Part shown: positions 4,183 through 52,348 of the stretch, one piece after another
How the letters are laid out: each line of letters begins with the position of its first letter
How positions within the stretch are numbered: position 1 is the first letter of the stretch
Virus record (IMG/VR): IMGVR_UViG_2778261060_000013
From: an uncultured virus (IMG/VR IMGVR_UViG_2778261060_000013)
Taxonomy: Duplodnaviria; Heunggongvirae; Uroviricota; Caudoviricetes
DNA: 64,000 bases
Reading direction: 5' to 3' (one strand)
The notes under the pieces: model-generated
What the model was told of the DNA's origin: nothing
The model's database searches: none
Seen by the model: the letters and a program-made list of their open reading frames with translations, nothing else
Program-made: the position numbers and the translations under genes

Positions 4183-4201
4183 TTTTCAATAATTACACTA
4201 A

Positions 4202-21786: not shown

Positions 21787-21789
21787 ATT

Positions 21790-32428: not shown

Positions 32429-32456
32429 TTAAAAAGTGTAATATATTTAGCTAAGT

Positions 32457-35400
32457 ATGGCCGGTACAAGGATAACACAATTTCCCAGTTTACCATCTGG
32501 GAGTTTGGCTTCGGAAGACGTTTTATTAGTAGTAGACGTCAGTGATACTTTTTATTCTCCTAGCGGCACTAACAAAGCCACCACTGTAGGCGACCTATCA
32601 AACTTTTTCAATAGCCAAGACACTTTTATAGGCTTAGGAGACACTCCCGGATCCTTTGGCAGTGCAGGGCAATCAGTTGTAGTATCTGCAGACGGAAACT
32701 CTTTAATATTTTCTGGAGTGACTGGAGTGGGCGCAGGAGGAGGGGGAGCCACAAGTTTCATAGAACTTACTGACACCGCAGATTCTTTAGGGTCTGAGGG
32801 TCAAGTAACCGTAGTTTCTGGAAGTGAGATAGTATTTTCTGGGATAGGGCATTTAGTTTCTAGAAGCGAACTTTCTAGCTATGTAACCACTTCCCAAACA
32901 GGTGATTTTATAACCAGTGATCAGACTGGAGATTTTGCAGGAGCAAGGACGACATTCGCTAGTTTAGATGATACTCCAGATTTAATAGGTTCTCCCGGGC
33001 AAGTTCTTGTTGTCTCTGATGCAGGTGGTACCTTGCAATTTTCTGACACCGCAGGAGAAGGAGCTGTAGCTTTTACCGGTCTTAATGATACCCCTTCTGG
33101 ATTAGGAATAGAAGGGCAGGCTGTTGTTGTTTCTGGTACTGGGTTAGCTTTTTCTGGAATAACATTAACGAGCACAACTGTCGTATCAGGCACAGGAGCT
33201 TTCACCGCTTTTTCACAACTAAATGACACACCTTCAGTCATACCAGAAAGTCAGCTAGTTATTGGCGGACCCACGGGCAACCTAGTTTTTTCTGGAGTAG
33301 AGTCTTTCGTCCTTACTGGAGAAACAGGAAATTTTGCAGATACAGCAACATTAGAAAGCTTCACTGAAGGTCTTAACGTAGGTACAGATTCGAGCTTGTC
33401 AGGAAGAAAACTTCATGTGGTAGGCGACGTTGAAATCTCAGGAACAATTTTTCAAAGCGGATCGATATTTGAAGGTGGGGGTGGATCTAGCACTTTTACT
33501 GGTCTTTCAGACACTCCTTCTAGCTTGGGTTCAGCCGGACAGTCAGTCGTCGTTTCCGCTGATGGAAACTCTCTAATATTTTCTGGCATAACTGGAAGTA
33601 GCGGCGGAGGCGGAACTACCATTATCTCTGGAGAAACTACTGCTAACAGTGGAATATTAGGAAACGACTTATTTACTGGCGACGGAGTAAAAACTGGGTT
33701 CATGATGACTCGGGCTCCGCTAAACGCTTTTAGCATAACAGTAGCAGTAAACGGTTTGCTACAAGCACCGGGAACCAACTATGATTTAATAAGCGGTAGA
33801 AGTGGGTTATTGTTTCCAGAAGCTCCTTCTAGCGGCGTAGAAATAGATGTACGTCATTTGGGAGGTTTAGTAGGTCCGTCTGGAGAACAGGGTATACAAG
33901 GAGAAGTAGGGGCGATTGGACCAACAGGATCGACTGGGCCAACTGGGCCAACCGGGCCGACAGGCCCAACTGGACCAACCGGGCCGACTGGACCAACTGG
34001 CCCATCCGGAGCGACAGGCGCAACTGGTCCTACAGGGCCAATAGGGCCGTCTGGAGCTACCGGCGAAAGAGGTCCCCAAGGGTCTGGCGTAGTGGGAGCT
34101 TTAGCCTCTGACATATTTACTGGCGATGGGTCGACAGTAAGTTATAATTTAACAAACAGTATAGGTGAAGCTAAGAATATTATAGTAAGCATTAACGGAT
34201 TGCTACAATCGCCGATAACCAACTATACAATTAGTGGCTCAGGCTTAACTTTCCCAGAAGCTCCGTCTAGTGGACTAGAGATAGAAGTTCGTCATCTTCA
34301 AGGTATACAAGGCCCTACCGGTGCTACCGGTCCCTCAGGGTCTGGAGGAGCTACTTCTTTTGTCGGTCTTAGCGACACTGTAGGGAGTCTAGGTATAGAA
34401 GGTCAAGTACCAGTCGTATCTGGTACAACTTTAGCGTTCTCAGGAATAACGGCAGGCACTACTTCTTTTGTAGGTCTTAGTGATACTGTAGGGAGCTTAG
34501 GCTCAGAAGGTCAAGTGCCAGTTGTGTCCGGCAGCACTTTGGCATTCTCAGGAATAACAGCAGGGTCAAGTGTGGATCTTTCGGCTGTTGATCAAAATAT
34601 CGTTCCTGACGCTACAAATACTCGAGACCTAGGAACAACAGGTAAAAGATGGAGAGACCTTTATTTATCCGGCACTTCTATATACTTAGGCCAACAAGTA
34701 CTTCAAGAGTCTGGCGGAGCTTTGAAGCTAAGCAGCGATGACGGATCAACGTTTTCAAATGTTACCACTAAAGCAGTCGCTGATGATGATTATGTCTCAA
34801 TAGCAAGTTCATCCAGTCAAGCCGTTTACGATTTTGATAGTACAGCTAACTTTAATAATACTTCTGCCGCATTTTCGGCTGGGATGTTGAATCCCGCAAC
34901 TGGCGGAAGACTGGAGCTAGATTTAGCTACCGGCATGTTTATAGAAGAGTATAGCAATACAAATAATATAGATACAGATAATAGTAGTAGCTATGCAATA
35001 GATGGGAAAGCAAAAATAGAACAGCAGTTAAATACGGGAGACGGGTCAGACGGAGATGTAACTGTTTCAACATCGGGAACTTACACGATGGATACAGACA
35101 GTTTGATAGCGGGAAGAACAGTCGCAGATGCGGTGGCTTTTAACGCTGATTCATTTACCACTAATACTGTTGTTTTGACCGACACTCCGAGTGGTATTGC
35201 CGCGGGGGACGAAGTAATAATTTATTGCGCGCAAGGTTACGGAACTCATAGTCGAACTTCTGGAAATACTGCGCCGAATAGCAGAAGAGTTAACGTAGGC
35301 AATTATGAATTCTTGACAGTAGATTCTGTAGATTCTAGTAGCAAGACAATAACTTTTACTACTACTAAGGAAAAATATTACGGAAACGCATCAGGCTCAG

Positions 35401-37256
35401 ATAGTACTATAGGAACAGGAGGCAGTGAAATGAAAGTCATTGTCCAACGAGTTCCTCATTACGCGAACTTAACCGTAGGTGAAAGTGCCACTATGACTGC
35501 CAGCAAGTGGAACGGCACTAAAGGAGGTTTGATGATTTTTAGAGTAGGAGGGACTCTTACAAATAATGGAACTATAGATGCTGGGGGTATTGGGTATAGA
35601 GGGGGTTTTGCTGGAGCTGCGTTTAGCGCTAGGTCTTCAGCTGGAGAAAGTATAATGGGCGGCCCATTTGAGTACAGTTCAGATAGCGTAGCCCGTAACG
35701 ATGCTGGAGGAGGATCTCATGACTGGAAGGGAACAGGCGGAAATCATCACGGGGATGATGAGATGGTAGACAATAACAATCATGGCAATTATTATAATTA
35801 TACTAATCCTTATGATTATTTGGATTTCTCAGGGAATGTATTAAGTTCTATAACGGATTACTCAAAATTGCTTTTTGGTTCTGGAGGAGGGCAGTTTAGA
35901 AACGGTAACGGTGGAGATGGCGGAGGTATTATATATTTTCATGCTAACGTTTATATTCAAGACGGAACAGCTAACATAAGGTCAAGTTATCATAACGGAG
36001 GTCAGAGTAATGGAAGTAATGGCAACAGCGGTTATGGCGCTGGTGGTGAAATTCAAATTTTTGTAAATTCAGTAACCTTAACAGGGAACTCTTTTTCTGT
36101 TTCCGGAGCAAGTTATACAAACAACGGACGTGTGACTAGATCTAGTTCTGGTAGATTTAGAATGACTTACGTAAGTTTGTCTGGAAGCATCTACTCTGGC
36201 ACTTACTTTTATTCTAGCCAGATAGCCGGAGCTTTTTCTGCGAGCGCTATAATACAATCAACTAACGTGCTCTCTAGCGCTGGACAGGTTGATTCAATCA
36301 ACAGACTTCTAACAACTGTTACTAGTTTGCCCGGAGGGTCACAAGCTTTAATACAGTTTGCTACGGGAACTGGAGCAGGTTTTTACTGGCAAGATGCAAC
36401 GGGAGGTTCTGGTTTAAGTACAGCTTTGACAGCAGGAACAGATACGGTGACGGACCTATCTTCTTTGAATTGGTCTGGTACTAATTTCTATTACAAATTA
36501 ACTTTAACTGGGAACGGAACTAGCACTCCAGAGCTAGATACTCTCAAAGTAGATTACGACCCTGATTTGTTTATCGGCACCGAACAAACTTGGACATCGC
36601 AAGCTTTAGGAGATGGCACAAAAAGAATTACCCCGACTTCTTTTACAGCTTTTTGGACAGATGATTCGGACAATATAAAACCAAAATATCAATTACTTGG
36701 TTCTGATACGTCTGATTTTTCTTCTATTAACTATTATCCGGGAGTTAGCGACTATTATCAAGATGGCGGTACGTATGATATAGACAACGAAACTGCATTT
36801 GATTTAACGACAGCCATCACCCAGTATAATAAATACTGGAAAGTAAAAGTCTATATTTCAAGTGGCCCCACAGCTGCGGATGCTCCAACAGTAGATAGAG
36901 TAAAGTTAAACGCTAATTTAGCAGATGATTTTGATCAAAAAGGCATTGCAAAAGCATGGGTTAATTTTATAGGAGTAACTGGAGGCGATGCCACTTTAAC
37001 AGATAGCTTAAACGTAACCAGCGTTAGTAGAATATCGACAGGAGTTTATACTGTTAATTTTAGCGGCCATTTTGACGATACTAATTATATGTTTACGGCC
37101 GGTGGATATCAAAATGAAGGTGGTTATGCAGTTATGCCGGTACGTGACGCTACGGGGACTACTTCGGTCTCAGGTTATCAAATAGCAATAGTTTCTGGTC
37201 AAAGTAGAATAGATTCAACAGGACAAGGAGTTTACTTAAGTTTCTTAGGAAGTTAA
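32457..37256 (+). CDS. Long fibre protein (LxDTP repeats, collagen GPT, FTGDG domains, Gly-rich domain, KAW tip domain)
   Basis: 1599-aa ORF with these motifs visible. Confidence 0.8.
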
Positions 37257-37278
37257 TAGTGTAATAAAGGAATAAGAA

Positions 37279-39294
37279 GTGTCAAATATTAAGAAAATAT
37301 TACCAAGCTTAGTAGATAGCGGAAATTTTACTTCCGACCTAGTTCCTGATGGTAGCGGCACTAGAGACTTAGGTAGCTCTGCTAAACCATGGAAGGATTT
37401 ATATGTAACTTCGGGCACGATCAACATTGGCGGCGAAACTATTAGTGTTGACGATGATGGCATATCTTTTTCTAGACCTATTAAAGTTAGAGAAGGTGGG
37501 CAAACGAGAAGATTAAGAGCAACTAACTCAGATTTTATAACTACAGGAGACACTGGCAATTTCGCCGATGTAAGTTCTTTGGAAAGTTTTCCACGGGGTT
37601 TAAATGTAGGAACTAGTACAAACTTAGCTAGCAGAACTTTGCAAGTGGTGGGCGATGTAGAAATCTCTGGCACTATATTTCAGAGTGGTTCTGTGTTTGA
37701 AGGCGGTGGTGGCGGAGGCGGAGGAGGAGGATCTTCGACTTTTACCGGTTTAAGCGACACTCCTAGTTCATTTACCGCAAATAAATATTTGTCAGTAAAT
37801 TCAGCAGGCAATGCTATTGAGATGGTAGATGCTGTTCAGTCTGGTCATCAGTCTGTCGAACAGGGATACTTTACCGGTCTAACTTTAAATGGAACAGGGA
37901 CTGGGATCCTGCAAAACGCAAGTGGCACAATTTCTAATTTAGATCTCGCCGATAATAAGTTTGATGTTAGTGTCATAGAGGAAAGAGACAGCACTACCGG
38001 AGATGCATATCTTAGTTCGGTGGAGCTGCAGTGTACTTACGAAACTAATATTAACGATGAGAGTGATAATGCTGTAACAGCCACAGCAGTAGGCTCTGCC
38101 GCGAGAAGCACCTCCCAAGCCAAAGAAGGAAGCGCTAGTTTAGATACAAATGGTGACTACATAACATTTCCATATAGTGCCGACTATACGAAAATGAGTG
38201 GTGATTTTACTATAGAAGTATGGTTTTACTATCAAGGTGATGAAGGCATGATAGCATCTGCCGGTAACGGATCAAATGGTTGGGGCTTTTACGTAAACAC
38301 CTCAGGAGACGGCGGAAATCATGGAATAAGGTGGCAGACTTATGGCAGCCAGAGCATGAACGTTTACCAACGCCTTGGCGGCAGTTTTTCAAGTTCTACT
38401 TGGTACCACGCAGCTGTGGTTAGAAGTGGTAATAGCGTAAAAGTTTATTTAAATGGTGTTTCTAGTCATGGAGCTTCGTCCATGACTTCTGGTTTGGAAA
38501 ACGGTAGCAATACTTTGCTCTATGTTGGTACTTATAGCGGCACGGGACAACAGAATCTACAACGCCTAGATGCATTTTTAGACCTGTTCCGAATTACCAC
38601 AGCTGCTAGATACACATCTAATTTTACTCCACCCACCAGCTTTCAAGGAAATGTAACAGAAGCTAAATATATCGGGCAGATAGGCGGTATAGATGATAGC
38701 GATGTAGACTACGGAATACAGAAATTATCTAACTCGCAGTTGATGATTAAAAAGTTGTCGAGTAATGATTTTACTCCCGACAGACTTTATGTAAACGTAA
38801 ATAAATTAGGCGCGCTGGGACAAGGCATAGCTTTTGATCAGCTTTATACTGGAGATGGCACGACTACTAATTACGCACTTTCAGAGAACGTTTCTAACGC
38901 AAGAGATGTACTAGTATCGGTTGAAGGTCTAATACAAACGCCGATAACCGACTATACTCTTTTAGGTCAGACGGGAGTTTCGTTTACAACCGGCGTTACA
39001 AGTGGTCACGAAATTAGTTTCCGACACTTGGCTTTAGGGCCTTCAGGCGCAACTGGCCCAGCAGGAGCTTCGGCGAATATTAGTTATCTAACTAACAGAT
39101 TTACCGGCAACGGAGTTGTTAGTGGTTTTGAAATGACGAGATCAATTTCAACTGCAGATCAAATTTTTGTTTTTGTGAACGGATTAGTGCAAGATAGTGG
39201 AGAGAACTTTAGCGTTACTAACGGAACAGGGTTATTTTTCTCCAGCGGAGAAATAGCTAGCGGAGATAAAATCATGGTGAGGCATATATACTAA
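37279..39294 (+). CDS. Fibre protein with a LamG domain and two FTGDG domains
   Basis: RDLGSSAKPWKDLY, GDFTIEVW, WYHAAVVR, ARYTSNFTPP. Confidence 0.8.
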   Translation: MSNIKKILPSLVDSGNFTSDLVPDGSGTRDLGSSAKPWKDLYVTSGTINIGGETISVDDDGISFSRPIKVREGGQTRRLRATNSDFITTGDTGNFADVSSLESFPRGLNVGTSTNLASRTLQVVGDVEISGTIFQSGSVFEGGGGGGGGGGSSTFTGLSDTPSSFTANKYLSVNSAGNAIEMVDAVQSGHQSVEQGYFTGLTLNGTGTGILQNASGTISNLDLADNKFDVSVIEERDSTTGDAYLSSVELQCTYETNINDESDNAVTATAVGSAARSTSQAKEGSASLDTNGDYITFPYSADYTKMSGDFTIEVWFYYQGDEGMIASAGNGSNGWGFYVNTSGDGGNHGIRWQTYGSQSMNVYQRLGGSFSSSTWYHAAVVRSGNSVKVYLNGVSSHGASSMTSGLENGSNTLLYVGTYSGTGQQNLQRLDAFLDLFRITTAARYTSNFTPPTSFQGNVTEAKYIGQIGGIDDSDVDYGIQKLSNSQLMIKKLSSNDFTPDRLYVNVNKLGALGQGIAFDQLYTGDGTTTNYALSENVSNARDVLVSVEGLIQTPITDYTLLGQTGVSFTTGVTSGHEISFRHLALGPSGATGPAGASANISYLTNRFTGNGVVSGFEMTRSISTADQIFVFVNGLVQDSGENFSVTNGTGLFFSSGEIASGDKIMVRHIY

Positions 39295-40373
39295 TGAAAG
39301 AATTTAAACTAGATAAAATTAAAGCCACTGGCACGACGCTCGGAGACTTACATTTTCCGAAAGTGAGGTTGTTACTGCCTCTTGATGGGAGCAACGGGGC
39401 GACTGCCACGTCTGACTCTAGTAATGATAATAGAACTATAACTTTTGTAGGTTCTGATAGTGAAATTTCCACAGCACAAAGTAAATTTGGCGAGAGTAGT
39501 TTGTCAATAACCGGTGGTAGTAGCAGAATCACCACTCCCGGAACTAGTAACCTGAGCGCGACAGGAGATTTTACCATGGAAGTGTGGATTTACAATTCAA
39601 GCACTTCGGACTATCCATGCTTAATCACTAATGGTGCTTCTTCTAACGAATTAAGTCTATATTTGGCTAGCACAGCCTCTAACCAAATTCTTAGAATGTG
39701 GAATAACGGTTCCGTAACTAACTTTTCTACAACGCTACCTCAAAATCAGTGGTATCATTTTGCTCTAGTTAGAAGCGGAAGCACTGTAAAGTTATATGTA
39801 AACGGCACGGCGGATTCAACTACTAGAAGCGACTCGGGGACTTATGGATGGGGCAGCCAAAGCAACTTGCATATAGGGGGCTATCCGACAAGAACGGATT
39901 ATAATTTTGAAGGTTACCTAGATGATTTTCGCCTTACGGTTGGAACGGCTCGCTACACAACAAACTTCACCCCACCAACAACCGCTCATTTAACTTCGGC
40001 CGGAGACGTTAACAAACACATCGTCGTCAACTCGGACGCTGATGGGGTAGCGATTGGCACGGGTGGCATTAATCAAGCACGGATTGCTCATGCGTGGTGC
40101 AATTGGGACGGCACTCAAGCTGCCGCAAGTATGATAGACGGCTCTTATAACATATCAAGTATAACCGACAGCGGCACAGGAGACTATACTCTTAATTTTT
40201 CTACAGCAGCGTCAGATGCTAATTTTGCTGCAACTTCTTGTGGTATAGGGACTACAAATCAAAGTGATGTGCTTTGCCGCCCTTCGAGCGCATCTGCTAT
40301 TCGGCATTTCTCTAGACATAATGGATCAGCTTACGACAATCCTGATGCAGCAATAATAGTTTTCGGGAATTAA
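39294..40373 (+). CDS. LamG adhesin cassette 1
   Basis: GDxxFP/LPxDG start, LamG core, 37-aa hinge, KAW-type tip, ends FGN. Confidence 0.85.
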   Translation: MKEFKLDKIKATGTTLGDLHFPKVRLLLPLDGSNGATATSDSSNDNRTITFVGSDSEISTAQSKFGESSLSITGGSSRITTPGTSNLSATGDFTMEVWIYNSSTSDYPCLITNGASSNELSLYLASTASNQILRMWNNGSVTNFSTTLPQNQWYHFALVRSGSTVKLYVNGTADSTTRSDSGTYGWGSQSNLHIGGYPTRTDYNFEGYLDDFRLTVGTARYTTNFTPPTTAHLTSAGDVNKHIVVNSDADGVAIGTGGINQARIAHAWCNWDGTQAAASMIDGSYNISSITDSGTGDYTLNFSTAASDANFAATSCGIGTTNQSDVLCRPSSASAIRHFSRHNGSAYDNPDAAIIVFGN

Positions 40374-40376
40374 AAA

Positions 40377-41501
40377 ATGAATTTACAAAAATTAAGACTA
40401 GGACAACTGAAACCAGCGGACGGAGCGACGACGCTTGGGGATGTGTATTATCCTCAAACTGTCCTACTGACACCTTTCGAGGGAACAAACGGTTCCACGT
40501 CTATTAGCGATTTAAGCACAAGGAACCACTCCTCAACTTTTAGCGGTAGCAGCCTTTCGATTTCTACATCTCAAAGTAAATTTGGATCAAGTAGCTTATT
40601 TCATAATAATCAAAGCTCGACTACCGACCACGTAAGTTTGGGATCAAATAGCGACTTTTTAATAAATCAAAATACAGAATACACTCTTGAATTTTGGTAT
40701 CGTGCTTTAGATACTACTGCTAATATCCCCTTTCTTGGTTATGGAACATACAGTAGCGCTATTCAATTCCAAATGTACGCTACTGGAGATGGAGCCGTAA
40801 TTTTTAAGCAGGGTAGCGGGTCTTGGGGTTGGGGAAGTATAACTATTACGGGCGGAACCTTGACCGTAGATACTTGGAAGCATATAGCAGTAGTAAGAAA
40901 TGCCGGAACATTAACAGTATATGTGGATGGAACAAGCGTTGGAAGTGCGAGCACGGCAAATTGGGGAGGTAGTACAGGGACGCTGAGAATTGGGACTTAC
41001 TTTGGAAATTCACGAGTTGGTTATTTTTATATGGATGATCTTCGGATCACTAAAGGTATCGCTCGTTACACTGGTAATTTTACCCCGCCAACAACCGCCC
41101 ATTTAACTTCCTCCGGAGACGCAAATAAACAAATCGTCGTCAACTCCGATGCGGATGGAGTGGCAATCGGAACTGGCGGCATTAACCAAGCGCGGGTTGC
41201 GAAAGCGTGGGTTAGATTTGATCAGACGGGGAGTCAGTCTATAGACTCTAGCTATAATATATCAAGTGTAACTGATACAAATACAGGAATAAGCACTTTA
41301 AATTTTTCAACAGCGATGAGTGACGCAAACTACTCTGTCGTCGCTACTGGCGGAAGCACTAATGCAAGATATTATGCTAGTACATGGTCAATAGGAACAA
41401 GTAGTTTTCAGGTAAGAAATTTTTCAGTTTATAATGGAAGCTCTTTAGGAGAGCATTATATAGATAGAGCAGATTGCTCAGCAATAGTTTTCGGAAATTA
41501 A
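40377..41501 (+). CDS. LamG adhesin cassette 2
   Basis: Same architecture as cassette 1. Confidence 0.85.
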   Translation: MNLQKLRLGQLKPADGATTLGDVYYPQTVLLTPFEGTNGSTSISDLSTRNHSSTFSGSSLSISTSQSKFGSSSLFHNNQSSTTDHVSLGSNSDFLINQNTEYTLEFWYRALDTTANIPFLGYGTYSSAIQFQMYATGDGAVIFKQGSGSWGWGSITITGGTLTVDTWKHIAVVRNAGTLTVYVDGTSVGSASTANWGGSTGTLRIGTYFGNSRVGYFYMDDLRITKGIARYTGNFTPPTTAHLTSSGDANKQIVVNSDADGVAIGTGGINQARVAKAWVRFDQTGSQSIDSSYNISSVTDTNTGISTLNFSTAMSDANYSVVATGGSTNARYYASTWSIGTSSFQVRNFSVYNGSSLGEHYIDRADCSAIVFGN

Positions 41502-41527
41502 AAAAAAGTGTAATTAAACTCTAAGGA

Positions 41528-44500
41528 ATGGCAACGGAAATTAAAAAGTTAAGACCGGAAAGTATAAGGACCACAGGTGCATCGGCTAATGACGTGCTCA
41601 CTATTAGTGGCGGCGAAACAGTTTTCGCAAATGAACTTTCTTTGTCTGGCTTGAATATCGGCACTTCTGAGTCGGTAGCTGGTAAAAAACTCAATATAGT
41701 TGGTGATGTAGAGATTTCCGGAACTCTTTTCCAAAGCGGTGATATTTTCACTTCAAGCCCAGATTTAACCCAATCTGGATTCCTTACCGAAGAAAGTACT
41801 TCTGGTACATACTCTACTCAATTTAATGTAACTGCAGGAGGAGGTGTCTATTACGTAAGTGAGATAACTGCGGGAAGCCATACAACAACTTCACAAGTTC
41901 AACAGTTGGAGCTGTATTTACAAAGAGGAAACTCCTACAAATTTACTACTGACTCCAGCACTAATGGCCATCCTCTTATTGTTGTTACCCAAGGCGGAGG
42001 AGGAGGTTATACATATGAGTACACTTCCGGGGTAACAAATTCCAGAGCTCAAAACGGCGGAATACTTTATTTCAGAGTTCCTCAATCTGCCCCTGACACT
42101 CTTTATTATCAATGTGGCGTTCATAGTAATATGGGCGCAGCTATCAATATCGTAGGGGCAAGTGGGGCTACGGGACCTACTGGACCTACTGGACCTACAG
42201 GTCCTACTGGCCCAACGGGTCCTACTGGACCAACTGGCCCAACCGGCCCTGCTGGCTCAGATGGCTCAGATGGAGCTACAGGACCAACCGGACCAACTGG
42301 GCCAACCGGACCAACTGGACCGACTGGGCCATCCGGAGCAACAGGTGCAACTGGTCCTGCAGGTCCTACAGGACCAACCGGTCCCACCGGCCCATCAGGC
42401 GCGACAGAAAACCTTTCTGCTTCAGGCTTTGTAGATTCATCGACAAATCAAACAATCGGTGGCAATAAGACTTTCATAAATGATGTTTCTATTAATAATT
42501 TAACTGTAACAGGAACTACGACGACAGTAAATACTACTGACCTTAATGTTAAAGATAATATAATTAAGATAAACAGCGGTGAGGCTGGCGCAGGTATTAG
42601 TTTAAATTCTGGAGGACTAGTAATAGATAGAGGTAGCGCTACTGATGCAAATATTTTATTTAATGATACTACTGATAGGTTTGAAGTAAACTTCCCTATA
42701 GCTACAGAAGGAACTTTAATACCGACTGCTTTTACTGGATTAACTGATACTCCCGGTTCAATTACAGCTGGGCAAGTTTTAGTAGGTAGCGGAAGTAGTA
42801 TTACTTTTTCTGGTACAGACGCTCTTGTTGGCCCAGCAGGATCTACGGGTCCGACTGGACCAACGGGACCAACAGGTCCTAGCGGCGCAACTGGCGCAGC
42901 TGGCTCGACTGGCCCTACTGGCCCTACTGGTCCAACAGGGCCTACAGGTCCAACAGGCCCAACGGGTCCGACTGGGCCTGCGGGAGCAGGTGGAGGCGGA
43001 GGAGCTTCGGCAACTCTAACCTCAGATACTTTTACAGCTAACGGAGCGCTTACTGGATTTTCACTTTCTCTTACTCCTTCAGGAGTAAACAGTATATTAG
43101 TAAGTATTGGTGGCATACTTCAAACCCCAACTACAAACTATGTATTAGATGGTAGCACTCTTAATTTAACAAGTGCACCTCCTTCTGGAGCAGAAATAGA
43201 AGTAAGAAATTTAGACTATCAAGGTGCTAGTGGCGCGACTGGCGCAACTGGTCCAGCCGGTCCGACAGGCCCAACGGGTCCTACCGGCCCAGCGGGTGCG
43301 ACTGGCCCTAGTGGCGCGACAGGCGCTACAGGTCCCGCCGGTCCCGCCGGAGCAGACGGCGCAACAGTAACTGGCGTCGGGATAGCTTTCAGTCAAACTT
43401 TTACAGGTGACGGAACTACAGCAAATTACGCTCTTAATGCAGGGATTAACACTACTAAAGACGTATTAGTTTCAATTCAAGGATACGTTCAAACTCCAGA
43501 TATAGATTATACTTTATTAGGGACTACAGGAATATCCTTTAGCACGGGTGTTATGAATGGGCATGAAGTAAACATTCGTCATCTTGCTATGGGGCCAAGC
43601 GGCGTTGCGGGAGCGACAGGTCCAACAGGCCCAGCGGGTTCGACAGGGCCTAGCGGTGCGACTGGCGCGGCTGGCCCAACGGGTCCAACAGGCCCTGCAG
43701 GTTCAACTGGTCCGACTGGCCCAACTGGTCCTACGGGGCCAACCGGTCCCACCGGCCCATCAGGAGCGACAGAAAATTTGTCTGCTTCTGGCTTTATAAC
43801 AACTGGAGACACAGGGAATTTTGCTGATACGACCATATTAGAAAGTTTTTCTCAGGGGTTAAACGTTGGTACTAGTTCTAATTTAGCAAGCAGAAAATTG
43901 CACGTCGTTGGTGACGTAGAGATTTCAGGAACTATCTTCCAAAGTGGCTCAGTATTTGAAGGCGGCGGTGGAGGCGGTGGCTCATCTACTTTCGTAGGGT
44001 TAAGTGATACCCCGGGAAGCTTTACAGCCAATAAATATGTTAGAGTTAATTCGGCAGGCAACGCTTTAGAATTTACAGAAACTGTTGGAGGTATAAATAG
44101 TACTGATATTTTCACAGGAGATGGATCAGTTTCAGGATTTTTGCTAACTCCTACCGCAGTCACTTCTACAAAAGATTTACTAGTATCTATAAATGGTGTT
44201 CTTCAAAGACCAGATACTGACTATAGTATTGTAGGTAATACTGGATTATTTTTTAATACTAGTGTTACTAGTGGGTATTTTGTAGAGGCTAGGCATATAG
44301 TTGGAGTGAGCGGCGCGGCAGGTCCAGCGGGTCCAGCGGGTCCAGCGGGTCCATCGGGCGCAAGCGTAACTGGCGTGGGAATAGCTTTTGATCAGTCTTA
44401 TACAGGCAACGGGTCAACTACTAACTATGCTTTATCTAGCAGCGTTTCTCATGTTAGGGACTTGTTGGTAGTAGTTGAGGGCATGGTCCAATCTCCAACT

Positions 44501-46450
44501 ATAGATTATACTTTAACTGGTAATACAGGCATAGTTTTTACCACCGGAGTTCCAAGCGGGCAAGAATTAAATATTCGTCATCTTGCGATGGGACCGAGCG
44601 GTGTGGCAGGCCCAACGGGTCCGACCGGCCCAGCAGGTTCCACAGGTCCAAGTGGAGCGGATGGGGCTGCGGGGCCAACTGGACCTACAGGTCCTACGGG
44701 TCCGACTGGCCCTAGTGGCGCGACAGGCGCTACAGGTCCCGCCGGTCCCGCCGGAGCAGACGGCGCAACAGTAACTGGTGTTGGGATAGCTTTTAGCCAA
44801 ACATTTACAGGTGACGGAGCTACATCAAATTATGCTCTTAGCGCAGGAGTCAGTGCTACTAAAGACATACTGGTAACAATTCAAGGATTTGCTCAAACGC
44901 CTGACATAGATTATAACTTATTAGGGACAACTGGTATTTCTTTTAATGGAAGTATAATAAGTGGACAAGAAGTTAATGTTAGACATCTTGCAATGGGGCC
45001 AAGCGGCGTTGCGGGAGCGACAGGTCCAACAGGCCCAGCGGGTTCGACAGGGCCAAGTGGCGCGACTGGCGCGGCTGGCCCTACCGGTCCGACCGGCCCT
45101 ACCGGCCCTACCGGTCCGACTGGCCCAAGTGGCGCTACTGGTCCTACGGGTCCGACTGGGCCAACGGGTCCTACTGGCCCTTCAGCCGCCGCCGCTGTCG
45201 AAGGAACGGGAGTTTCTGGCTATGTGGCAAGGTGGGCTAGCGCCGATACTTTAACAAGTGGAGCGCTTTTTGATAATGGAACGAATGTTAGTATAGGAAC
45301 AACAAACGCTAAAGATAAATTTCATGTAAATGGTGGTAATATAATGATTACTGACACTTCGCCAGAACTCACTTTTGAAACGTCTAATAGTAGTCATTAC
45401 AACTGGCAAATTGCCGCTCAAGAAAATGTAAGTGATACTCTAGAGTTTTCTGTTGGTAGCGCTGACGCAGATGCATCAAACGACACATTTTCGCCAAAAA
45501 TGGTTATTGCACAGGGAGGCAATATTGGCATAAATCAGACAAATCCGCAAAGAAGGCTCCACGTCGTTGGCGATGTAGAAATTTCAGGAACTATATTCCA
45601 AAGCGGCTCTGTATTTGAAGGAGGCGGAGGCGGAGGAGGCGGATCGTCTACGTTCGTTGGCTTGAGCGACACTCCTGCCAACTTTACAAGTTCTGCTAAT
45701 AAATTCTTAAGAGTTAACGCAGCAGCTAACGCAGTAGAGTTCGCAGACGGAAATGGATTGCTAGATATAACTAGCACGAAGTTCACAGGAGATGGATCAA
45801 CTTCAGGCTATGCTTTGTCTTCGACAGTCAACAGCGCTAGTAACCTAATTGTTACAGTTGGTGGTCTTGTTCAAACTCCAGTAGAAGATTATACAATAGT
45901 TGATGGCACTGGAGTATTTCTAGACGAAAATGTAGTAAGCGGAGCAGTAGTAGAAGTAAGAAAAATATCACAAAATTCTTTTTCTTCTGACGATTCTGTA
46001 GCAGATGCATTCACAGGAGACGGCTCAACTTCAGGCTTCGCTTTGTCATTTAGTCCTAATGATAAAGCCGCAAACGTACTTGTGTCTCTTAATGGCATTA
46101 TTCAGCAACCAGATACGGCGTATGTAGTAAATGGGACTACTCTTAATTTTGCTTCTGGCACTGTAGCAAGCGGAGATGTAATTGATGCTAGACATATAAC
46201 AATTGGCCAGTCTGGCGCTTCCGCAGGTTCGGCGAGCATTAGCTATCATCAAGATATATTTACAGGTAACGGAGTCGTATCCGGCTTTTCAATGGGAAGA
46301 ACAGTTTCTAATATTCTAGAAACAACTGTATTTGTAAATGGCTTAGCTCAGATATCTGACGTAAACTATTTTGTAGATGGAACAGGGTTGACTTTTGCTT
46401 CTGGTGATATAGCCAGCGGCGATTTAATAATGGTTAGACATGTATACTAA
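41528..46450 (+). CDS. Collagen-like scaffold fibre with eight FTGDG domains and a cupredoxin-like domain
   Basis: 1640 aa; multiple (GPT)n tracts between repeated ~70-aa domains. Confidence 0.85.
43299..45054 (+). repeat. Identical direct repeats at 1404-bp offset (43299-43374 = 44703-44778; 43589-43650 = 44993-45054)
   Basis: 76-bp and 62-bp matches read by eye in the collagen-coding flanks. Confidence 0.8.
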
Positions 46451-47559
46451 TGAAGTTACCTAAATTAACAAATTTATCAGTTACCGGAACGACGGTTGGA
46501 GATGTGCATTTTCCGAAAGTGAAGCTGTTGCTGCCTTTTGATGGTTCGAACGGCGCAACGTCAACTACTGATAGTAGCAACGCTAATAACTCAGTGACTT
46601 TTGTCGGTACTGCTCAGTTGTCTACGGCGCAAAGTAAGTTTGGTGGGAGTAGCCTTCTACTGGATGGTAATAGCGACTACATATATATAGCTAACGATGA
46701 CTTAGATTTTTCAAGTACTGAAAGTTTTACTCTTGAATTTTGGATCTATTTTAATGATATAGACGATGGAAATATAGTAAATTTTTACTCTGATTATTCT
46801 GGAGCCAGCAACGGAATGTCAATTGATAAGAGTACTAGTAATGTGCTTAGAGCTCACAATGGAGACTCGACCCGTATTACTGGAACAACAACAGTTTCAG
46901 CTGGCCAATGGTATCACATAGCGCTGTCTGGTACTTCTGGGAGTTATAAATTATTTCTAAACGGAACTCAAGAAGGTAGCACTAGCAGTAACGGCTTCAC
47001 AGGCGGCACTACTAATAAGTATATAGGGACTTTCTATTGGGCAGGTCTAGGAGGGGCTGTTCGTCTTGTAAACGGGTATATTGAAGATTTTCGTATCACG
47101 AAAGGTGAAGCACGCTATACTTCAAACTTCACCCCGCCGACTTCCGCCCATTTAACTTCCGCCGGAGACGTTAACAAGCACATCGTTGTAAACTCGGGCG
47201 CTGACGGCGTGGCGATAGGAACTGGCGGCATTTCTCAAGCGCGGATTGCGAAAGCGTGGGCTGATATTGATGGAAGTCAAGCGGCGGCGAACATGATTGC
47301 GTCAAGTTATAACATCAGCAGTATAACCGATAATGCCACAGGGGTATTTTCATTTAACTTTTCGACAGCTATGACCGACGCTAACTATAGCGCTGTAACA
47401 AGCCTCGGATTAGATGGCGGACTCGCTACCTCTGTAGCTAGTTGTAAATTACAAGACAAGACAACTGCCTTAACTAAAGTAAGATGTACTTATCGTAGTT
47501 CAGGAGCAGCAACTGATTATGATTATAATATTATATGTTTGATAGTTTTTGGGAATTAA
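46450..47559 (+). CDS. LamG adhesin cassette 3
   Basis: Same architecture as cassette 1. Confidence 0.85.
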   Translation: MKLPKLTNLSVTGTTVGDVHFPKVKLLLPFDGSNGATSTTDSSNANNSVTFVGTAQLSTAQSKFGGSSLLLDGNSDYIYIANDDLDFSSTESFTLEFWIYFNDIDDGNIVNFYSDYSGASNGMSIDKSTSNVLRAHNGDSTRITGTTTVSAGQWYHIALSGTSGSYKLFLNGTQEGSTSSNGFTGGTTNKYIGTFYWAGLGGAVRLVNGYIEDFRITKGEARYTSNFTPPTSAHLTSAGDVNKHIVVNSGADGVAIGTGGISQARIAKAWADIDGSQAAANMIASSYNISSITDNATGVFSFNFSTAMTDANYSAVTSLGLDGGLATSVASCKLQDKTTALTKVRCTYRSSGAATDYDYNIICLIVFGN

Positions 47560-47565
47560 AAAAAT

Positions 47566-48732
47566 ATGGCTTTATCAAAATTAAGACTAGGACAGTTAAA
47601 ACCAGCCGACGGATCAACGACGGTTGGAGATGTTTACTTCCCTCAGACAAGTTTATTGTTGCCTTTTGATGGGTCGGACGCAGCCACTAGCACTAGTGAC
47701 TTAAGTAACAGAAATGCAACTGTTACTTTTGCTGGCACGGCTCAATTATCTACTGGACAAAGTAAATTTGGCGGATCCAGTTTGCTATTAGATGGTAACA
47801 GCGACTATGTATCAATTTCTGACAGCTATTGGAATACCGCTTTCGACAGTGGAGATTTTACTGTTGAATGTTGGGTAAGATTTGATTCGGGAGTTCTTGA
47901 TGGCTCCACTTCTGTTGAATTTATGGCGACTAGGGGAAACAGCGGCGGTTCATCAACTAATGGCTGGGGCCTTAGGAAGTATAATGATAATTTTATAGCT
48001 TGGTATATGCGTATAGGTAGTAGCTGGGTTTATCTTAATTATTCTCAAGGAACTAAAACAACCGTATCAGCGGACACTTGGTATCACGTTGCGGTAACAA
48101 GAAGTGGTAATACTTGGAAACTATTTTTAAATGGAACAGCCGAAGATACAATCACTAATTCAGGCAGCATAACTTCTGCCAATGGCGATAGATTCGTTAT
48201 AGGAGCCTTGGCTGGCGGCAACTTCAGTGGAGATCTCTATATGGATGGCTATATAGAGGACGTTAGAGTCACTATAGGACATGCTCGTTATACTTCAAAT
48301 TTCACAGCGCCAACTTCTGCACACTTAACTTCCGCCGGAGACGTCAACAAACACATCGTCGTCAACTCGGACGCTGATGGAGTGGCGATCGGCACGGGTG
48401 GGATAAACCAAGCGCGGATCGCGAAAGCGTGGGCAGAGTTTGATGGGTCAGGTATTACTCTAAACGCATCTTATAACGTAAGCAGTATTACTGATCATGG
48501 TAATAGAGATTATACTATAAACTTTGGTACAGCAATGGCAGACACAAATTATAGTATAGTAGGATCAAACATAGGGCAAAGCTCATCCATTTCGTATTAT
48601 TGGTCTGTGGTCACATCGAGCGGGAATGCAAAAACCACAAGCGGAGTAAGAATAAATATACCACATATTGAGGACAGTAGTTTGACAAGTAACGACCCAG
48701 ACGCAGTAAACGTAATAGCCTTCGGCAATTAA
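47566..48732 (+). CDS. LamG adhesin cassette 4
   Basis: Same architecture as cassette 1. Confidence 0.85.
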   Translation: MALSKLRLGQLKPADGSTTVGDVYFPQTSLLLPFDGSDAATSTSDLSNRNATVTFAGTAQLSTGQSKFGGSSLLLDGNSDYVSISDSYWNTAFDSGDFTVECWVRFDSGVLDGSTSVEFMATRGNSGGSSTNGWGLRKYNDNFIAWYMRIGSSWVYLNYSQGTKTTVSADTWYHVAVTRSGNTWKLFLNGTAEDTITNSGSITSANGDRFVIGALAGGNFSGDLYMDGYIEDVRVTIGHARYTSNFTAPTSAHLTSAGDVNKHIVVNSDADGVAIGTGGINQARIAKAWAEFDGSGITLNASYNVSSITDHGNRDYTINFGTAMADTNYSIVGSNIGQSSSISYYWSVVTSSGNAKTTSGVRINIPHIEDSSLTSNDPDAVNVIAFGN

Positions 48733-48734
48733 AA

Positions 48735-49892
48735 ATGAAAAAGTTACCAATAGATTATTTAGGAGCTTTTGGATCGACAGTTGGAGACGTACATTTTCCG
48801 AAAGTTAAATGGCTGTCGCCTTTCGATGGAACGAACGGCGCGACGACAACGACTGACTCGAGCAACTCTAACTCTTCATTAACTTTGCAAGGTTCAACTC
48901 AGATTTCTACAGCACAAAGCAAATTCGGCGGTAGTAGTATGTATGTGCCAAACAGTGCTCAACAAGGAGTTTACGCTAATGTTGCTGGGACTACAGTTAA
49001 TTTAACGGGAGACTTTACTATTGAATGGTGGATAAGAAGAGTGCAGGTTTCGTATGCTAATAGTATGGCGCAACTAATATATGGAATGCCATTGGCAGAC
49101 GATTTAACCGGATATGCTATGGTAGTAGGATACTATGGTTCAAGCGCAAGCACGACTCAGGGTCTTATGTATGTTAGTAGTAATGGATCTAGTTGGAACG
49201 TGGCTTCAGCAGTTCAACTTGGTACCGGCAGCTTAGGGACTGTTGGTCAATGGGTGCATATGGCATTGGTCAGATCTGGTTCTGACTGGAGTTATTATGT
49301 TGATGGTACAAGGACTTACACTGGGTCTCTTGGTTCTGCTACAATATCGACTCCCGGAAGCTACATGTACCTAGGTAGAGCTTGGGGCGACGTAAGCTCA
49401 ATGGAAGCTTACTACGATGACTTTAGGGTTACTCAAGGGCTTGCTCGATACACCGGAGCCTCTTTTACAGTTCCTACTACAGCGCATCTGACTTCGGCTG
49501 GAGACGTCAATAAGCAGATCGTCGTCAACTCGGACGCGGACGGTGTAGCGATTGGCACAGGCGGAATAAACCAAGCGCGGGTTGCGAAAGCTTGGATAAA
49601 CTTTAACGGGTCTGGAACAGTTGCTATAAGAGATAGTTATAATTTCAGCAGCTTGACTGACGATGGAACAGGCTTGTATAAAGCTAATTTTTCTACCGTT
49701 ATGTCTGATACTAATTATTCGTTCGTGGCCGAGTCATGTGGCACATTAAATGGTATAAATAATGAAAACGGGTTTACAAACCACGCGAGGAGAGCTGCCA
49801 TGTCTACAGATTATATTGGAATAGGCACTAGTGCACACGACGGTACTTTTTATGACGCTACGATAGTAATGGCGCAAGTTTTCGGGAATTAA
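48735..49892 (+). CDS. LamG adhesin cassette 5
   Basis: Same architecture as cassette 1. Confidence 0.85.
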   Translation: MKKLPIDYLGAFGSTVGDVHFPKVKWLSPFDGTNGATTTTDSSNSNSSLTLQGSTQISTAQSKFGGSSMYVPNSAQQGVYANVAGTTVNLTGDFTIEWWIRRVQVSYANSMAQLIYGMPLADDLTGYAMVVGYYGSSASTTQGLMYVSSNGSSWNVASAVQLGTGSLGTVGQWVHMALVRSGSDWSYYVDGTRTYTGSLGSATISTPGSYMYLGRAWGDVSSMEAYYDDFRVTQGLARYTGASFTVPTTAHLTSAGDVNKQIVVNSDADGVAIGTGGINQARVAKAWINFNGSGTVAIRDSYNFSSLTDDGTGLYKANFSTVMSDTNYSFVAESCGTLNGINNENGFTNHARRAAMSTDYIGIGTSAHDGTFYDATIVMAQVFGN

Positions 49893-49895
49893 AAA

Positions 49896-51032
49896 ATGAA
49901 TATAACTAAACCAAGATTAGATCAATTTAAAATAACCGGAAGCACGGTTGGAGATTTGTATTTTCCGAACGTCATCTTTCTTGCCAAGTTTGATGGCTCA
50001 AATGGCAGCACCAGCATCACAGATTCCAGCAACAAAAATAATTCAATAACTGTAAACGGAGGCGCTCAAATTTCGACGGCGGCTAGTAAGTTCGGCGGGA
50101 GTAGTCTTAAACTTGACTATGAAAATGCTGGGACAGGAGATAGATTAGTTGCCGATACAGTGGCGGATAATTTAACGTCAACTACTCATACTATAGAGTT
50201 TTGGTTTAAAACTGATATGGCAGATGGTCATATCACTAGCCAAAATCCTGCCTTTTTTGGATTTAATGATGCTGGTAGCAGTTACGATAATAGACTCGTA
50301 CTACTAATGTATAGCAAAACCGAACTTCGCTTTTATCGTGGCGTTAGTTATACAGCTTTGACAGTCAGCGCTTTAAATGATGACGCATGGCATCATATAG
50401 CAATTGTTTCTGACGGAACAGATTATGATATATATTTAGATGGCAGCAGAATAAGTTCAGATGCAGGGGATTCTAGGCAAATAAATTCAAACGATACTTT
50501 TATTATCGGCGCAGAACTGGATTCTGGTCCAAGTACAGGTAATTATTTTAGCGGCTATATAGATGATTTTAGAATTACTAACGCAGTAGCTAGATATAGT
50601 GGAGCTTCTTTCGCTTTACCTACAACGCATCTGACTTCCGAGGGAGATGTCAATAAACACATCGTCGTCAACTCCGATGCGGATGGAGTGGCGATTGGAA
50701 CAGGCGGCATTAACCAAGCGCGGATTGCAAAAGCATGGATAAATCTTGACTCAACTCAAGCAGCAGCAAGTATGATAAGGGAAAGCTATAATGTTAGTAG
50801 CATGACGGACACAGCTACAGGCAGATATACTATTAATTTTTCGACTGCTTTATCTAATGCAAACTATTGTTTTGCAGGTAGCGCAGGAAATAATGCGAGC
50901 ACAACTACAAACGGTAGGGACATTACAAATGACGGGACAAGAACAACTTCTGCATTGCCGATAAGAGTGACTCGTGACAATGACGTAGCCGTAGAAGATT
51001 CTTATGTAGGAATAATAGTTTTCGGGAATTAA
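49896..51032 (+). CDS. LamG adhesin cassette 6
   Basis: Same architecture as cassette 1. Confidence 0.85.
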   Translation: MNITKPRLDQFKITGSTVGDLYFPNVIFLAKFDGSNGSTSITDSSNKNNSITVNGGAQISTAASKFGGSSLKLDYENAGTGDRLVADTVADNLTSTTHTIEFWFKTDMADGHITSQNPAFFGFNDAGSSYDNRLVLLMYSKTELRFYRGVSYTALTVSALNDDAWHHIAIVSDGTDYDIYLDGSRISSDAGDSRQINSNDTFIIGAELDSGPSTGNYFSGYIDDFRITNAVARYSGASFALPTTHLTSEGDVNKHIVVNSDADGVAIGTGGINQARIAKAWINLDSTQAAASMIRESYNVSSMTDTATGRYTINFSTALSNANYCFAGSAGNNASTTTNGRDITNDGTRTTSALPIRVTRDNDVAVEDSYVGIIVFGN

Positions 51033-51035
51033 AAA

Positions 51036-51248
51036 ATGAAAAAAATTTTACTAACTTTTACTTTAATTTTCTCCGGTTGTTCAACCGTAGACGATCAAGG
51101 TAGGTTGGAAAAAGTCAGAATCGCCGTACCAGCTTTCTTCCAAATAGAAATGGACTACTATAAAGATAAAGAGAACAAAGGCAAGGGAAGTGTAAGTACT
51201 GATACTGTTAACGGTTATCCTAAATTAATGGACATGATAAGAAAATGA
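51036..51248 (+). CDS. Small lipoprotein inside the cassette array
   Basis: MKKILLTFTLIFSGC lipobox. Confidence 0.75.
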   Translation: MKKILLTFTLIFSGCSTVDDQGRLEKVRIAVPAFFQIEMDYYKDKENKGKGSVSTDTVNGYPKLMDMIRK

Positions 51249-52348
51249 GTTTTAACGCGCCAGATATAAGACAGTTTAAGTTGACCGGAAGTACGGTTGG
51301 AGATGTACACTTTCCAAAAGTGAAGCTTCTTTTACCTTTCAATGGCTCAAACGGTGCAACGTCAACGACTGATAGTAGTAATAGTAATAATTCAGTGACT
51401 TTCGTTGGTACTGCTCAAATATCCACGGCGCAAAGCAAGTTCGGCGGCAGCAGTATGTTGTTCGACGGTGATAGCGATTATTTAACTGTAACTAATAGTA
51501 GTTTTAGCACTTTTAATGCGTCCGGTGCGACGTTTACTATAGAATTTTGGGTTTATTTTAACTCCATAAGTGGACAACAAGACTTTGTAATGAATTATGC
51601 TAGTTCTAGTGGTGGGCTAATAATTAGAAAAACTAGCGGGCATGTCATACAGACAAACTTATCGGGAGATGGTGCTGATATAACTGGTACGACTACGGTG
51701 TCAACTGGCCAGTGGTATCATGTAGCATTATCTGGTTCTAGTGGAAGTTATAAGTTGTTTTTAAATGGTACCCAAGAAGGCAGTACTTATACGGGGGCAC
51801 TTGGGGCTGGTAGTAGTACTTATCAAATAGGAGCCTTTTACTGGTCGAGCACTCTTTATAATCCCCTGAATGGGTACTTGGATGATATGCGTTTCACCGC
51901 TGGTCTAGCAAGATATACTTCAAACTTTACTCCGCCAACTTCTGCCCATTCAACTTCCGCCGGAGATGCAAATAAACAAATAATTGTAAACTCCGACGCG
52001 GATGGAGTTGATGTAGGAACCGGCGGAATAAACCAAGCACGGATTGCAAAAGCTTGGGTTAATTTTGAGGGAACGGATACCTCTAATATAAGGGGTTCTT
52101 ATAATGTGAGTAGCATTTCTGACAGAGGTACTGGACTATTTACGGTTAATTTTTCGACAGCGATGACTGACGCAAATTATGCCGTTAATGCTACGAGTGG
52201 TCACGGCAGCGATACTGCTACGACGGCAACCGCTCGTACAGGAGGAACTATTTCGACGACGGCTTGCCATATAAGTACTGGTTACAGATCAAGCTCTTCG
52301 GTGCTTGCAGATATGAACTATAACGCGGTAACATTTTTCGGGAATTAA
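51245..52348 (+). CDS. LamG adhesin cassette 7
   Basis: Same architecture as cassette 1. Confidence 0.85.
   Translation: MSFNAPDIRQFKLTGSTVGDVHFPKVKLLLPFNGSNGATSTTDSSNSNNSVTFVGTAQISTAQSKFGGSSMLFDGDSDYLTVTNSSFSTFNASGATFTIEFWVYFNSISGQQDFVMNYASSSGGLIIRKTSGHVIQTNLSGDGADITGTTTVSTGQWYHVALSGSSGSYKLFLNGTQEGSTYTGALGAGSSTYQIGAFYWSSTLYNPLNGYLDDMRFTAGLARYTSNFTPPTSAHSTSAGDANKQIIVNSDADGVDVGTGGINQARIAKAWVNFEGTDTSNIRGSYNVSSISDRGTGLFTVNFSTAMTDANYAVNATSGHGSDTATTATARTGGTISTTACHISTGYRSSSSVLADMNYNAVTFFGN

Follow-up and report, generated by a model that had tools for sequence, protein, structure and literature searches.

A phage host-recognition module with repeated FTGDG jellyrolls and lectin-type cassettes as a candidate branched fibre

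How might a phage mount many small lectin-type proteins on a few large fibres? The question is raised by positions 32457-52348 of a 64,000-nucleotide stretch of an uncultured Caudoviricetes virus (IMG/VR IMGVR_UViG_2778261060_000013), hereafter the window, which covers 64 kb from the start of a 77-kb contig within a 1.98-Mb, 89-contig genome bin. This region is a phage host-recognition module consisting of three large fibre proteins (p32457, p37279 and p41528) and seven small, lectin-type putative receptor-binding proteins, here called cassettes. A first-pass annotation had proposed a plug-and-socket branched fibre, in which a domain repeated in the large proteins (FTGDG) captures short N-terminal peptides, and had likened it to a cellulosome scaffold. 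We find that the branched-fibre part of this proposal is consistent with the fold class of the domain, the conservation of the peptides and the co-variation of domain and cassette numbers, and that the likeness to a cellulosome does not stand. In our judgement, it is about as likely as not that the cassette peptides dock on at least some of the FTGDG domains.

To locate FTGDG domains, the copies in the window were used to build a hidden Markov model (HMM), with which all six stop-to-stop frames of the 77-kb contig were searched. Twelve strong domains of ~66 amino acids (aa) were found (83-104 bits each), and the earlier count of two in p32457, two in p37279 and eight in p41528 was reproduced. 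Beyond these three open reading frames (ORFs), the six-frame search of the contig returned no further significant match. A related copy that had been claimed for ORF 20759 is marginal (whole-ORF E 0.022, partial, model positions 21-61; Pfam DUF4183 E 0.017) and was not counted. All twelve domains are on the plus strand. Those of p32457 lie at 33663..33860 (86.4 bits) and 34107..34301 (95.4 bits, with weak Pfam DUF4183 and Phage_T7_tail matches), and those of p37279 at 38836..39033 (104.2 bits) and, at the very C-terminus, 39094..39291, which belongs to a conserved terminal subtype (b). In p41528 the HMM places them at 43022..43216, 43391..43591, 44102..44299, 44390..44590, 44795..44995, 45776..45970, 46004..46201 and 46250..46447, the last two lying in the 165-aa segment folded below. 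As the annotation had also stated, the copies are mostly spaced by collagen, with at least five GXY triplets in 6 of the 9 intervals between successive copies. In these six intervals the rods have 7-24 triplets; overall, rods are 7-28 triplets long, and Pfam Collagen (PF01391) is matched above its cut-off by seven stretches of p41528 (158.9 bits, E 2.5e-47) and two of p32457 (41.9 bits).

The three large proteins differ in how these modules are combined. The 1599-aa fibre protein p32457 (32457..37256, plus strand) has a tail-fibre-type N-terminus, about eight DTP-type repeats of ~32 aa, two FTGDG domains with a 24-triplet collagen rod between them, and a large glycine-rich middle part; its C-terminal tip domain (phrog_11355, aa 1484-1549) belongs to the family that also forms the tips of the cassettes. 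The other two, which we call scaffolds, are mosaics of collagen rods, FTGDG domains, ~32-aa "F.GL.DTP" repeats, short motifs and poly-Gly. Both have a plug-like N-terminus. In p37279 (671 aa, GTG start; 37279..39294, plus strand) there follow an LHVVG motif, poly-Gly, a DTP repeat, an in-line LamG domain (Laminin_G_3, E 1.4e-16) and a terminal tandem FTGDG pair, whereas p41528 (1640 aa; 41528..46450, plus strand) carries a cupredoxin-like domain, seven collagen rods and eight FTGDG domains. They end in MVRHIY and MVRHVY, respectively, and in both cases the stop codon overlaps the ATG of the next cassette as TAATG, in agreement with the annotation. Fusion of a scaffold with its first cassette by frameshift or read-through was considered and is unnecessary, since relatives whose TAAAAATG junctions do not overlap show the same protein ends.

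The cupredoxin-like domain of p41528 (aa ~65-206; 41720-42145) is an observation in its own right. In a protein-atlas look-up its nearest viral clusters are annotated 'Blue (type 1) copper domain' (0.93), and a plastocyanin/azurin cluster is also close (0.89); the end of the domain resembles a type-1 copper (cupredoxin) ligand motif. No match was found by phmmer among PDB sequences, and Pfam gives it only a sub-threshold Cohesin match of 17.0 bits.

The FTGDG domain itself belongs with phage tail proteins. Pfam Phage_T7_tail (PF03906) is matched by p41528 with 86.8 bits (E 1.6e-24, against a cut-off of 25.2 bits), and in a genome-wide search one single FTGDG domain scores 25.6 bits. The matches span only positions 9-74 of the 157-position profile, and the arrangement of the T7 fibre, a single N-terminal copy followed by a helical part, was not found in these proteins, whose copies are internal or C-terminal and repeated 2-8 times. 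A profile of the 12 copies, searched against PDB sequences, matches a K1 depolymerase (9k4a, residues 132-169 and 206-243, E 2e-10), and also the Kp7 tail adaptor (7y22_e, two copies), the P-SCSP1u fibre and HRP29 gp44. When the C-terminal 165 residues of p41528, with two FTGDG domains in them, were modelled and searched with Foldseek, residues 1-335 of CBA120 TSP4 ranked first (E 4.7e-5), followed by a KP1 baseplate protein, the fibre of cyanophage A4, the T4 baseplate and a large number of N-terminal structures of T7 gp17. Compared with the T4 gp10-like XD2 and XD3 domains, the model is likewise a small beta-jellyroll, and the terminal FTGDG pair superposes on XD2+XD3 of TSP4. As modelled, then, FTGDG is a ~66-aa beta-jellyroll of the T7 gp17 N-terminal and T4 gp10 XD2-XD3 kind.

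Such jellyrolls are known to hold partner proteins. In PMC8825819, XD2 and XD3 of TSP4 are described as beta-jellyrolls with their N- and C-terminal strands side by side, a fold common to XD2/XD3 of T4 gp10, and as platforms for partner proteins, namely gp12 and gp11 in T4 and the other tailspikes in CBA120. In the T7-like cyanophage P-SCSP1u, according to PMC10575957, the N-terminal jellyroll of the fibre binds a fibre dock of the adaptor. Because of these platforms and this dock, the class to which FTGDG belongs is one documented for docking proteins in host-recognition organelles. The comparison with a cellulosome finds no such footing. FTGDG matches Phage_T7_tail and not Cohesin; the sole Cohesin match, the 17.0-bit one mentioned above, is below the 24.1-bit cut-off and lies in a different domain of p41528. 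No dockerin was found by Pfam (E <= 0.01) in the seven cassettes, which gave LamG-type matches (Laminin_G_3/2/1) and weak, sub-threshold ones to Toxin_R_bind_N and Polysacc_lyase.

The partners of these platforms would be the cassettes. Seven of them are present behind the two scaffolds, as first reported; they are paralogues of 359-388 aa, 43-51% identical to the first. Cassettes 1 (359 aa; 39294..40373; N-peptide type MKEFKLDKIKATG) and 2 (374 aa; 40377..41501; type MNLQKLRLGQLKPADG) follow p37279, the start of the first overlapping the p37279 stop. Behind p41528 come cassettes 3 (369 aa; 46450..47559; start overlapping the p41528 stop), 4 (388 aa; 47566..48732; MALSKLRLGQLKPADG), 5 (385 aa; 48735..49892; MKKLPIDYLGAFG), 6 (378 aa; 49896..51032; MNITKPRLDQFKITG) and 7 (367 aa; 51245..52348; MSFNAPDIRQFKLTG), all seven on the plus strand. 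They have a common layout: an N-peptide of ~15-20 residues is followed by Laminin_G_3 (PF13385; 47.8-79.9 bits in 7/7 cassettes, cut-off 27.6), a highly conserved linker (HLTSAGDVNK...ARIAKAW) and a C-terminal tip of ~100 aa (phrog_11355). In a model of cassette 3, the LamG part (aa 21-235, mostly pLDDT 88-97, the predicted local distance difference test score) and a beta-sandwich tip (aa 266-369) are confident; aa 1-20 are unstructured, and the linker at 240-265 is of low confidence. Foldseek of this model matched ConA-like jellyrolls. A profile of the tip domain found nothing meaningful among PDB sequences (best E 0.31). Among cassettes, the least conserved columns are those of the LamG loops (aa ~80-210) and of the distal tip (aa 311-360), which, on the alignment, is the pattern expected of ligand-binding surfaces. 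The best-conserved segment is the internal linker (aa 216-270, e.g. 47095-47259; conservation score 0.74-0.87), predicted as unstructured in the monomer (pLDDT ~41), which may form a neck for trimerisation or a second site of contact. This linker and the conserved ...VFGN-stop-AAAAATG junctions could also serve as recombination points.

The N-terminal peptides behave as anchors would: they are near-invariant among related phages, and the lectin domain and beta-sandwich tip behind them diverge fast and are shuffled between genes. We compared 40 cassettes, the seven of the window and 33 non-redundant ones from nine IMG/VR loci (L009-L014, L017, L018, L020); L015, L016 and L019 are near-duplicates of arrays in L017 and L020 and were left out. 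The N-termini of the 40 fall into about six recurring types, and all fit one loose pattern. For window cassettes 1-7, the closest N-peptide found in the 33 relatives is 100, 100, 100, 100, 93, 100 and 100% identical, while the attached LamG-variable and tip parts are often only 24-40% identical, and the best match of each segment is frequently another gene. Codon changes within conserved peptides are exemplified by 4 synonymous against 1 non-synonymous and by 7 against 3; summed over 17 pairs that are not independent, the differing codons are 39 synonymous and 22 non-synonymous. Judged by sequence, the N-peptides bear the signature of an anchor element, in which the anchor is fixed and the receptor-binding parts vary. 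The peptides that the annotation had quoted are correct for the seven cassettes, p37279 and p41528. The one given for the protein at 27527 (MPVNNLDKIDARYIDG) is only loosely similar to them, and this resemblance is too weak to count 27527 as a plug-bearing protein.

Gene order and gene number connect the two elements. The same layout of scaffold and cassettes occurs on 13 IMG/VR contigs, and because of this recurrence it is more than chance. All nine scaffold ends examined (9/9) coincide with the end of a highly conserved FTGDG domain, and in each case the next gene is a cassette. The FTGDG subtypes are position-specific and orthologous between phages, and the terminal domain forms a clade of its own that is the best conserved, with many invariant columns in the nine scaffolds. 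A correlation between domain number and the number of peptide-bearing genes had been set beforehand as a test, and such a relation was seen, in a small sample: of 15 scaffold/array occurrences, six are complete at both ends, and in these the two numbers rise together. The pairs of FTGDG domains and cassettes are 2 and 2 for p37279, 8 and 5 for p41528, 2 and 2 for the small and 11 and 7 for the giant scaffold of a syntenic contig, 2 and 2 in L031, and 4 and 4 in L032; the Pearson r of these six is 0.98, with arrays that are related by descent. More informative are two orthologous contrasts, which agree, with two more domains and two more cassettes from L031 to L032, and three more domains and two more cassettes from the window to the syntenic contig. 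A seventh pair has 6 domains and at least 6 cassettes, its array reaching the contig end. For more distant FTGDG proteins, the extension of the pattern is bounded by the contig ends at which the P0011 loci stop, and P0002 yielded no locus.

These observations are consistent with a mechanism in which the cassettes would be hung on the scaffolds by their N-terminal peptides, with at least some FTGDG domains as docking platforms and the terminal tandem pairs as the first candidates. Here we infer the binding itself, the choice of docking domains and the trimeric state. The outcome would be a branched fibre displaying many different lectin heads. An extended form of this model, a hierarchical and addressable tree, strikes us as unlikely. 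In it, p32457 would be anchored at the baseplate and its two FTGDG domains would hold p37279 and p41528 by their plug-like starts; the terminal pair of p37279 would hold its two cassettes, p41528 would carry five on collagen-spaced nodes, and the six peptide types would be position codes for particular FTGDG subtypes.

Several results weigh against docking. No fixed pairing was found between the subtype of the terminal FTGDG domain and the peptide type of the next gene, the first cassette being of four types behind subtype a and of two behind subtype b. The count correlation comes from only six non-independent arrays, in which the number of internal LamG domains changes alongside, and the cassette-to-domain ratio is 0.63-1 and not 1:1, with 0.63 in large scaffolds. 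LamG domains also occur in-line within scaffolds, behind a different conserved segment of ~45 aa and without a peptide joint. On the structural side, p32457 and p37279 by themselves score below the Phage_T7_tail cut-off (18.5 and 17.3 bits), and the AlphaFold2 monomer models were built from shallow alignments, of 25 rows for the last 165 residues of p41528 (pLDDT 77.7) and 40 rows for cassette 3 (mean pLDDT 84). The XD link rests on fold, because the sequence alignments to T4 gp10 and TSP4-N are insignificant: aligned by hhalign with single sequences, the 12-copy profile gave a probability of 1.6% for gp10 residues 303-343 and 1.0% for TSP4 residues 222-245, the latter falling inside the structurally aligned span (187-250). 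Finally, the family is very common, with 12,290 cluster representatives at E <= 1e-3 for the 12-copy profile. Among the best 150 of these, 149 match the window HMM, with a median of 4 copies, and 32 end in FTGDG; of the 149, only 10 carry LamG and 19 carry collagen. Since so few have LamG, many FTGDG arrays must do something other than hold LamG cassettes, and the domain can be a plain shaft module.

This last point leads to the alternative that the FTGDG domains are structural shaft nodes only, that is, trimer-registering knots between collagen rods or spacers, with the cassettes attached elsewhere (at the baseplate, the LHVVG or DTP repeat regions or the conserved linker) or forming independent short fibres. 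Helices of bacterial collagens need flanking trimerising domains, and collagen does fill the majority of the inter-domain intervals here, 6 of 9. The breadth of the family, with 139 of its 149 best-scoring examined members without LamG, and the surplus of domains over cassettes in large scaffolds also fit this explanation, as does the fact that the most conserved cassette segment is the linker and not the N-peptide, a linker that is likewise unstructured in the monomer model. Yet with collagen in only 19 of the 149 FTGDG-rich proteins, the domain is not a dedicated collagen nucleator. Every scaffold ends in FTGDG with a cassette gene directly behind it, and the counts co-vary, both of which speak against this alternative. 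In the fold as described in PMC8825819, the N- and C-terminal strands are adjacent, which suits side platforms better than in-line beads. We regard a purely structural role as rather improbable, albeit worth serious consideration.

If docking is confined to the C-terminal FTGDG unit, cassettes would compete for it as alternative tips of each fibre end, virions would be heterogeneous, and the internal domains would be shaft. This accords with the separate clade and superior conservation of the terminal domain in the nine scaffolds, with the one loose pattern that all N-peptides obey, and with the differences between phages in the first cassette behind that domain. One shared site has no need of discrete peptide types, which nevertheless coexist within one genome and across phages, nor does it account for the rise of cassettes with FTGDG number in orthologous scaffolds, from (2,2) to (4,4); we think such a single dock quite unlikely. 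It is very improbable, in turn, that the cassettes are not virion parts at all and act, for example, as fibre assembly helpers or as secreted or host-surface lectins. A lipoprotein gene inside the array speaks for it. Against it, the 1599-aa fibre p32457 ends in the same tip domain, the scaffolds contain homologous LamG modules, the LamG part of the cassettes has matches among PHROGs of virion structure and baseplate as well as BFVD entries named structural proteins, and no signal peptides were seen at the cassette N-termini by reading.

Docking of cassette peptides on FTGDG domains, the reading that we prefer, would resemble branched systems already described. The principle itself, a branching jellyroll together with a conserved N-terminal peptide, is known from T4 gp10, CBA120, G7C, KP32 and RaK2 and is not categorically new, because the system that matches here is a known one, the branched fibre with an anchor, a branching domain and a conserved peptide. 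According to PMC6872550 and PMC13352976, secondary receptor-binding proteins (RBPs) are docked to branching domains by conserved peptides of 7-29 aa at their N-termini; the former reports peptides as short as 7-11 residues docking onto T4gp10-like branching domains in Klebsiella phages and coliphages, and the latter that deletion of a 29-residue peptide abolished virion incorporation of KP32 RBP2. Two features of such a branched multi-RBP system are found here: three fibre genes and seven cassettes stand in one block, and a conserved N-peptide precedes divergent distal parts.

In CBA120 (TSP1-4, with XD1-XD3 of TSP4-N) and in T4 (gp10 with gp11 and gp12), tandem small beta-jellyrolls likewise sit on an organiser protein, the partners are receptor-binding proteins, as proposed for the cassettes, and in T4 the partner genes 11 and 12 lie directly behind gene 10, like cassettes behind scaffolds. 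Unlike those systems, the window has 12 domains on three proteins, many of them separated by collagen and placed internally or C-terminally rather than near the N-terminus; its partners, rather than tailspikes with D1/D2 heads, are lectin-type proteins of ~370 aa in which only ~15-20 residues precede the first domain, and the sequence similarity of FTGDG to gp10 and TSP4 is insignificant. The Klebsiella and coliphage podoviruses (KP32 gp37-gp38, the K1-5/SP6 adaptor, G7C gp66-gp63.1) are alike in their design, with an anchor, a branching domain and a conserved peptide, and the FTGDG profile matches residues 132-243 of the K1 depolymerase and the Kp7 tail adaptor. They have two RBPs, which are enzymatic depolymerases, whereas here there are seven small LamG-lectin RBPs and three large fibres, and their contact between peptide and domain was shown by experiment, whereas for the window it is a proposal. 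Similar in scale are the Alcyoneusviruses RaK2 and phiK64-1, for which PMC10253068 gives many RBPs and, in RaK2, eight XD domains proposed to assemble nine fibre proteins, near the 12 domains and 7-9 candidate partners of the window. These are jumbo Klebsiella phages with depolymerase spikes, without collagen spacers, and with XD domains clustered in N-terminal head regions, in contrast to the present arrangement. T7 gp17 and P-SCSP1u gp28 also use the jellyroll as a protein-docking element, which binds the fibre dock of the adaptor (PMC10575957); in those fibres one N-terminal copy stands before a helix and plugs into the tail. FTGDG is repeated up to 8 times, is internal or C-terminal, and covers only its part of the T7 profile. 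What is distinct here is the number of domains (12), their internal and C-terminal placement, the collagen spacers, the small lectin-type partners and the marine uncultured lineage. A literature search on collagen-like, LamG-bearing, paralogous phage tail fibres returned no description of a system of this kind.

Expression of the module appears to follow the same grouping. The promoter-like octamer AGTGTAAT occurs 10 times against 2.4 expected, a number reached in 0 of 100 shuffles. Its copies are at 14615, 28013, 32435, 37258, 41507, 52383, 52936 and 59107 on the plus strand and at 4192 and 4494 on the minus strand. At least six are placed some 12-15 bases upstream of the start of a gene (14634, 28033, 32457, 37279, 41528 and 52953), including those upstream of p32457 (32435..32442), p37279 (37258-37265) and p41528 (41507-41514), and none of the seven cassettes is preceded by one. 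The octamer is, on its distribution, probably a late-promoter element of the phage. Because it precedes the scaffolds and not the cassettes, each scaffold and its cassettes are probably a transcription unit.

Further genes of the window touch on the module. Cassettes 6 and 7 are separated by a 70-aa ORF at 51036-51248 that begins with a lipoprotein-like signal (MKKILLTFTLIFSGC...); relatives keep a gap of the same size at this position, and in two of them the 15 bases leading up to the next cassette are identical. Such lipoproteins occur beside receptor-binding genes of other phages, and the product could be a surface-modifying or exclusion lipoprotein. An eighth LamG paralogue of 319 aa is encoded on the minus strand at 7052-8011, far from the array. 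It has a ~95-aa N-terminal extension, lacks the tip domain, and matches Laminin_G_3 (E 6e-24) and the same PHROGs as the cassettes. A 905-aa protein at 18042 (18042-21187 with ORF 20759) shares its N-terminal motif and DTP-type repeats with p32457, and towards the C-terminus it has a match to a 'tail fiber connector' PHROG of the T4 gp9 type. Its last residues are ...GYIY, the junction to the small ORF 20759 is the same TACTAATG, and the two may be a further scaffold/partner pair. At 21538-22095, between fibre-like genes, two small ORFs have N-termini that read as signal-peptide-like, and one of these contains a lipobox-like ...LATGC. At 4635-6185, a protein with ankyrin repeats (Ank_2, E 3.9e-19) adjoins a short stretch with scattered N.

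The contig encodes a large terminase, PhoH and many fibre-like genes, and is for this reason assigned to a phage. Pfam recognises almost none of its other structural genes. No megablast match to isolated phages was found for 22 kb of the window, and the terminase is only ~24% identical to those of the nearest isolates. With 40% G+C, against 25-37% in the other 29 contigs listed of the bin, the phage contig is a compositional outlier, and the bin may therefore not be the host of the phage.

If docking is true, the principle of a branching domain and a conserved peptide would reach beyond enterobacterial phages to an uncultured marine lineage, and in a new building plan, with docking-type jellyrolls on collagen rods and small lectin heads in place of enzymatic tailspikes. 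Fixed anchor peptides and shuffled lectin and tip modules would then explain how such phages keep pace with variable host surfaces. The module would also constitute a natural modular display scaffold whose rules, peptide type against domain subtype, could be read from metagenomes. In the event that the addressable tree holds as well, lectin heads would be swappable by recombination with assembly undisturbed, and the collagen-spaced multivalent lectin display would be larger than any characterised branched phage fibre. Should docking prove false, the region would still be a well-delimited example of a very common and little-described fibre repeat, represented by 12,290 clusters.

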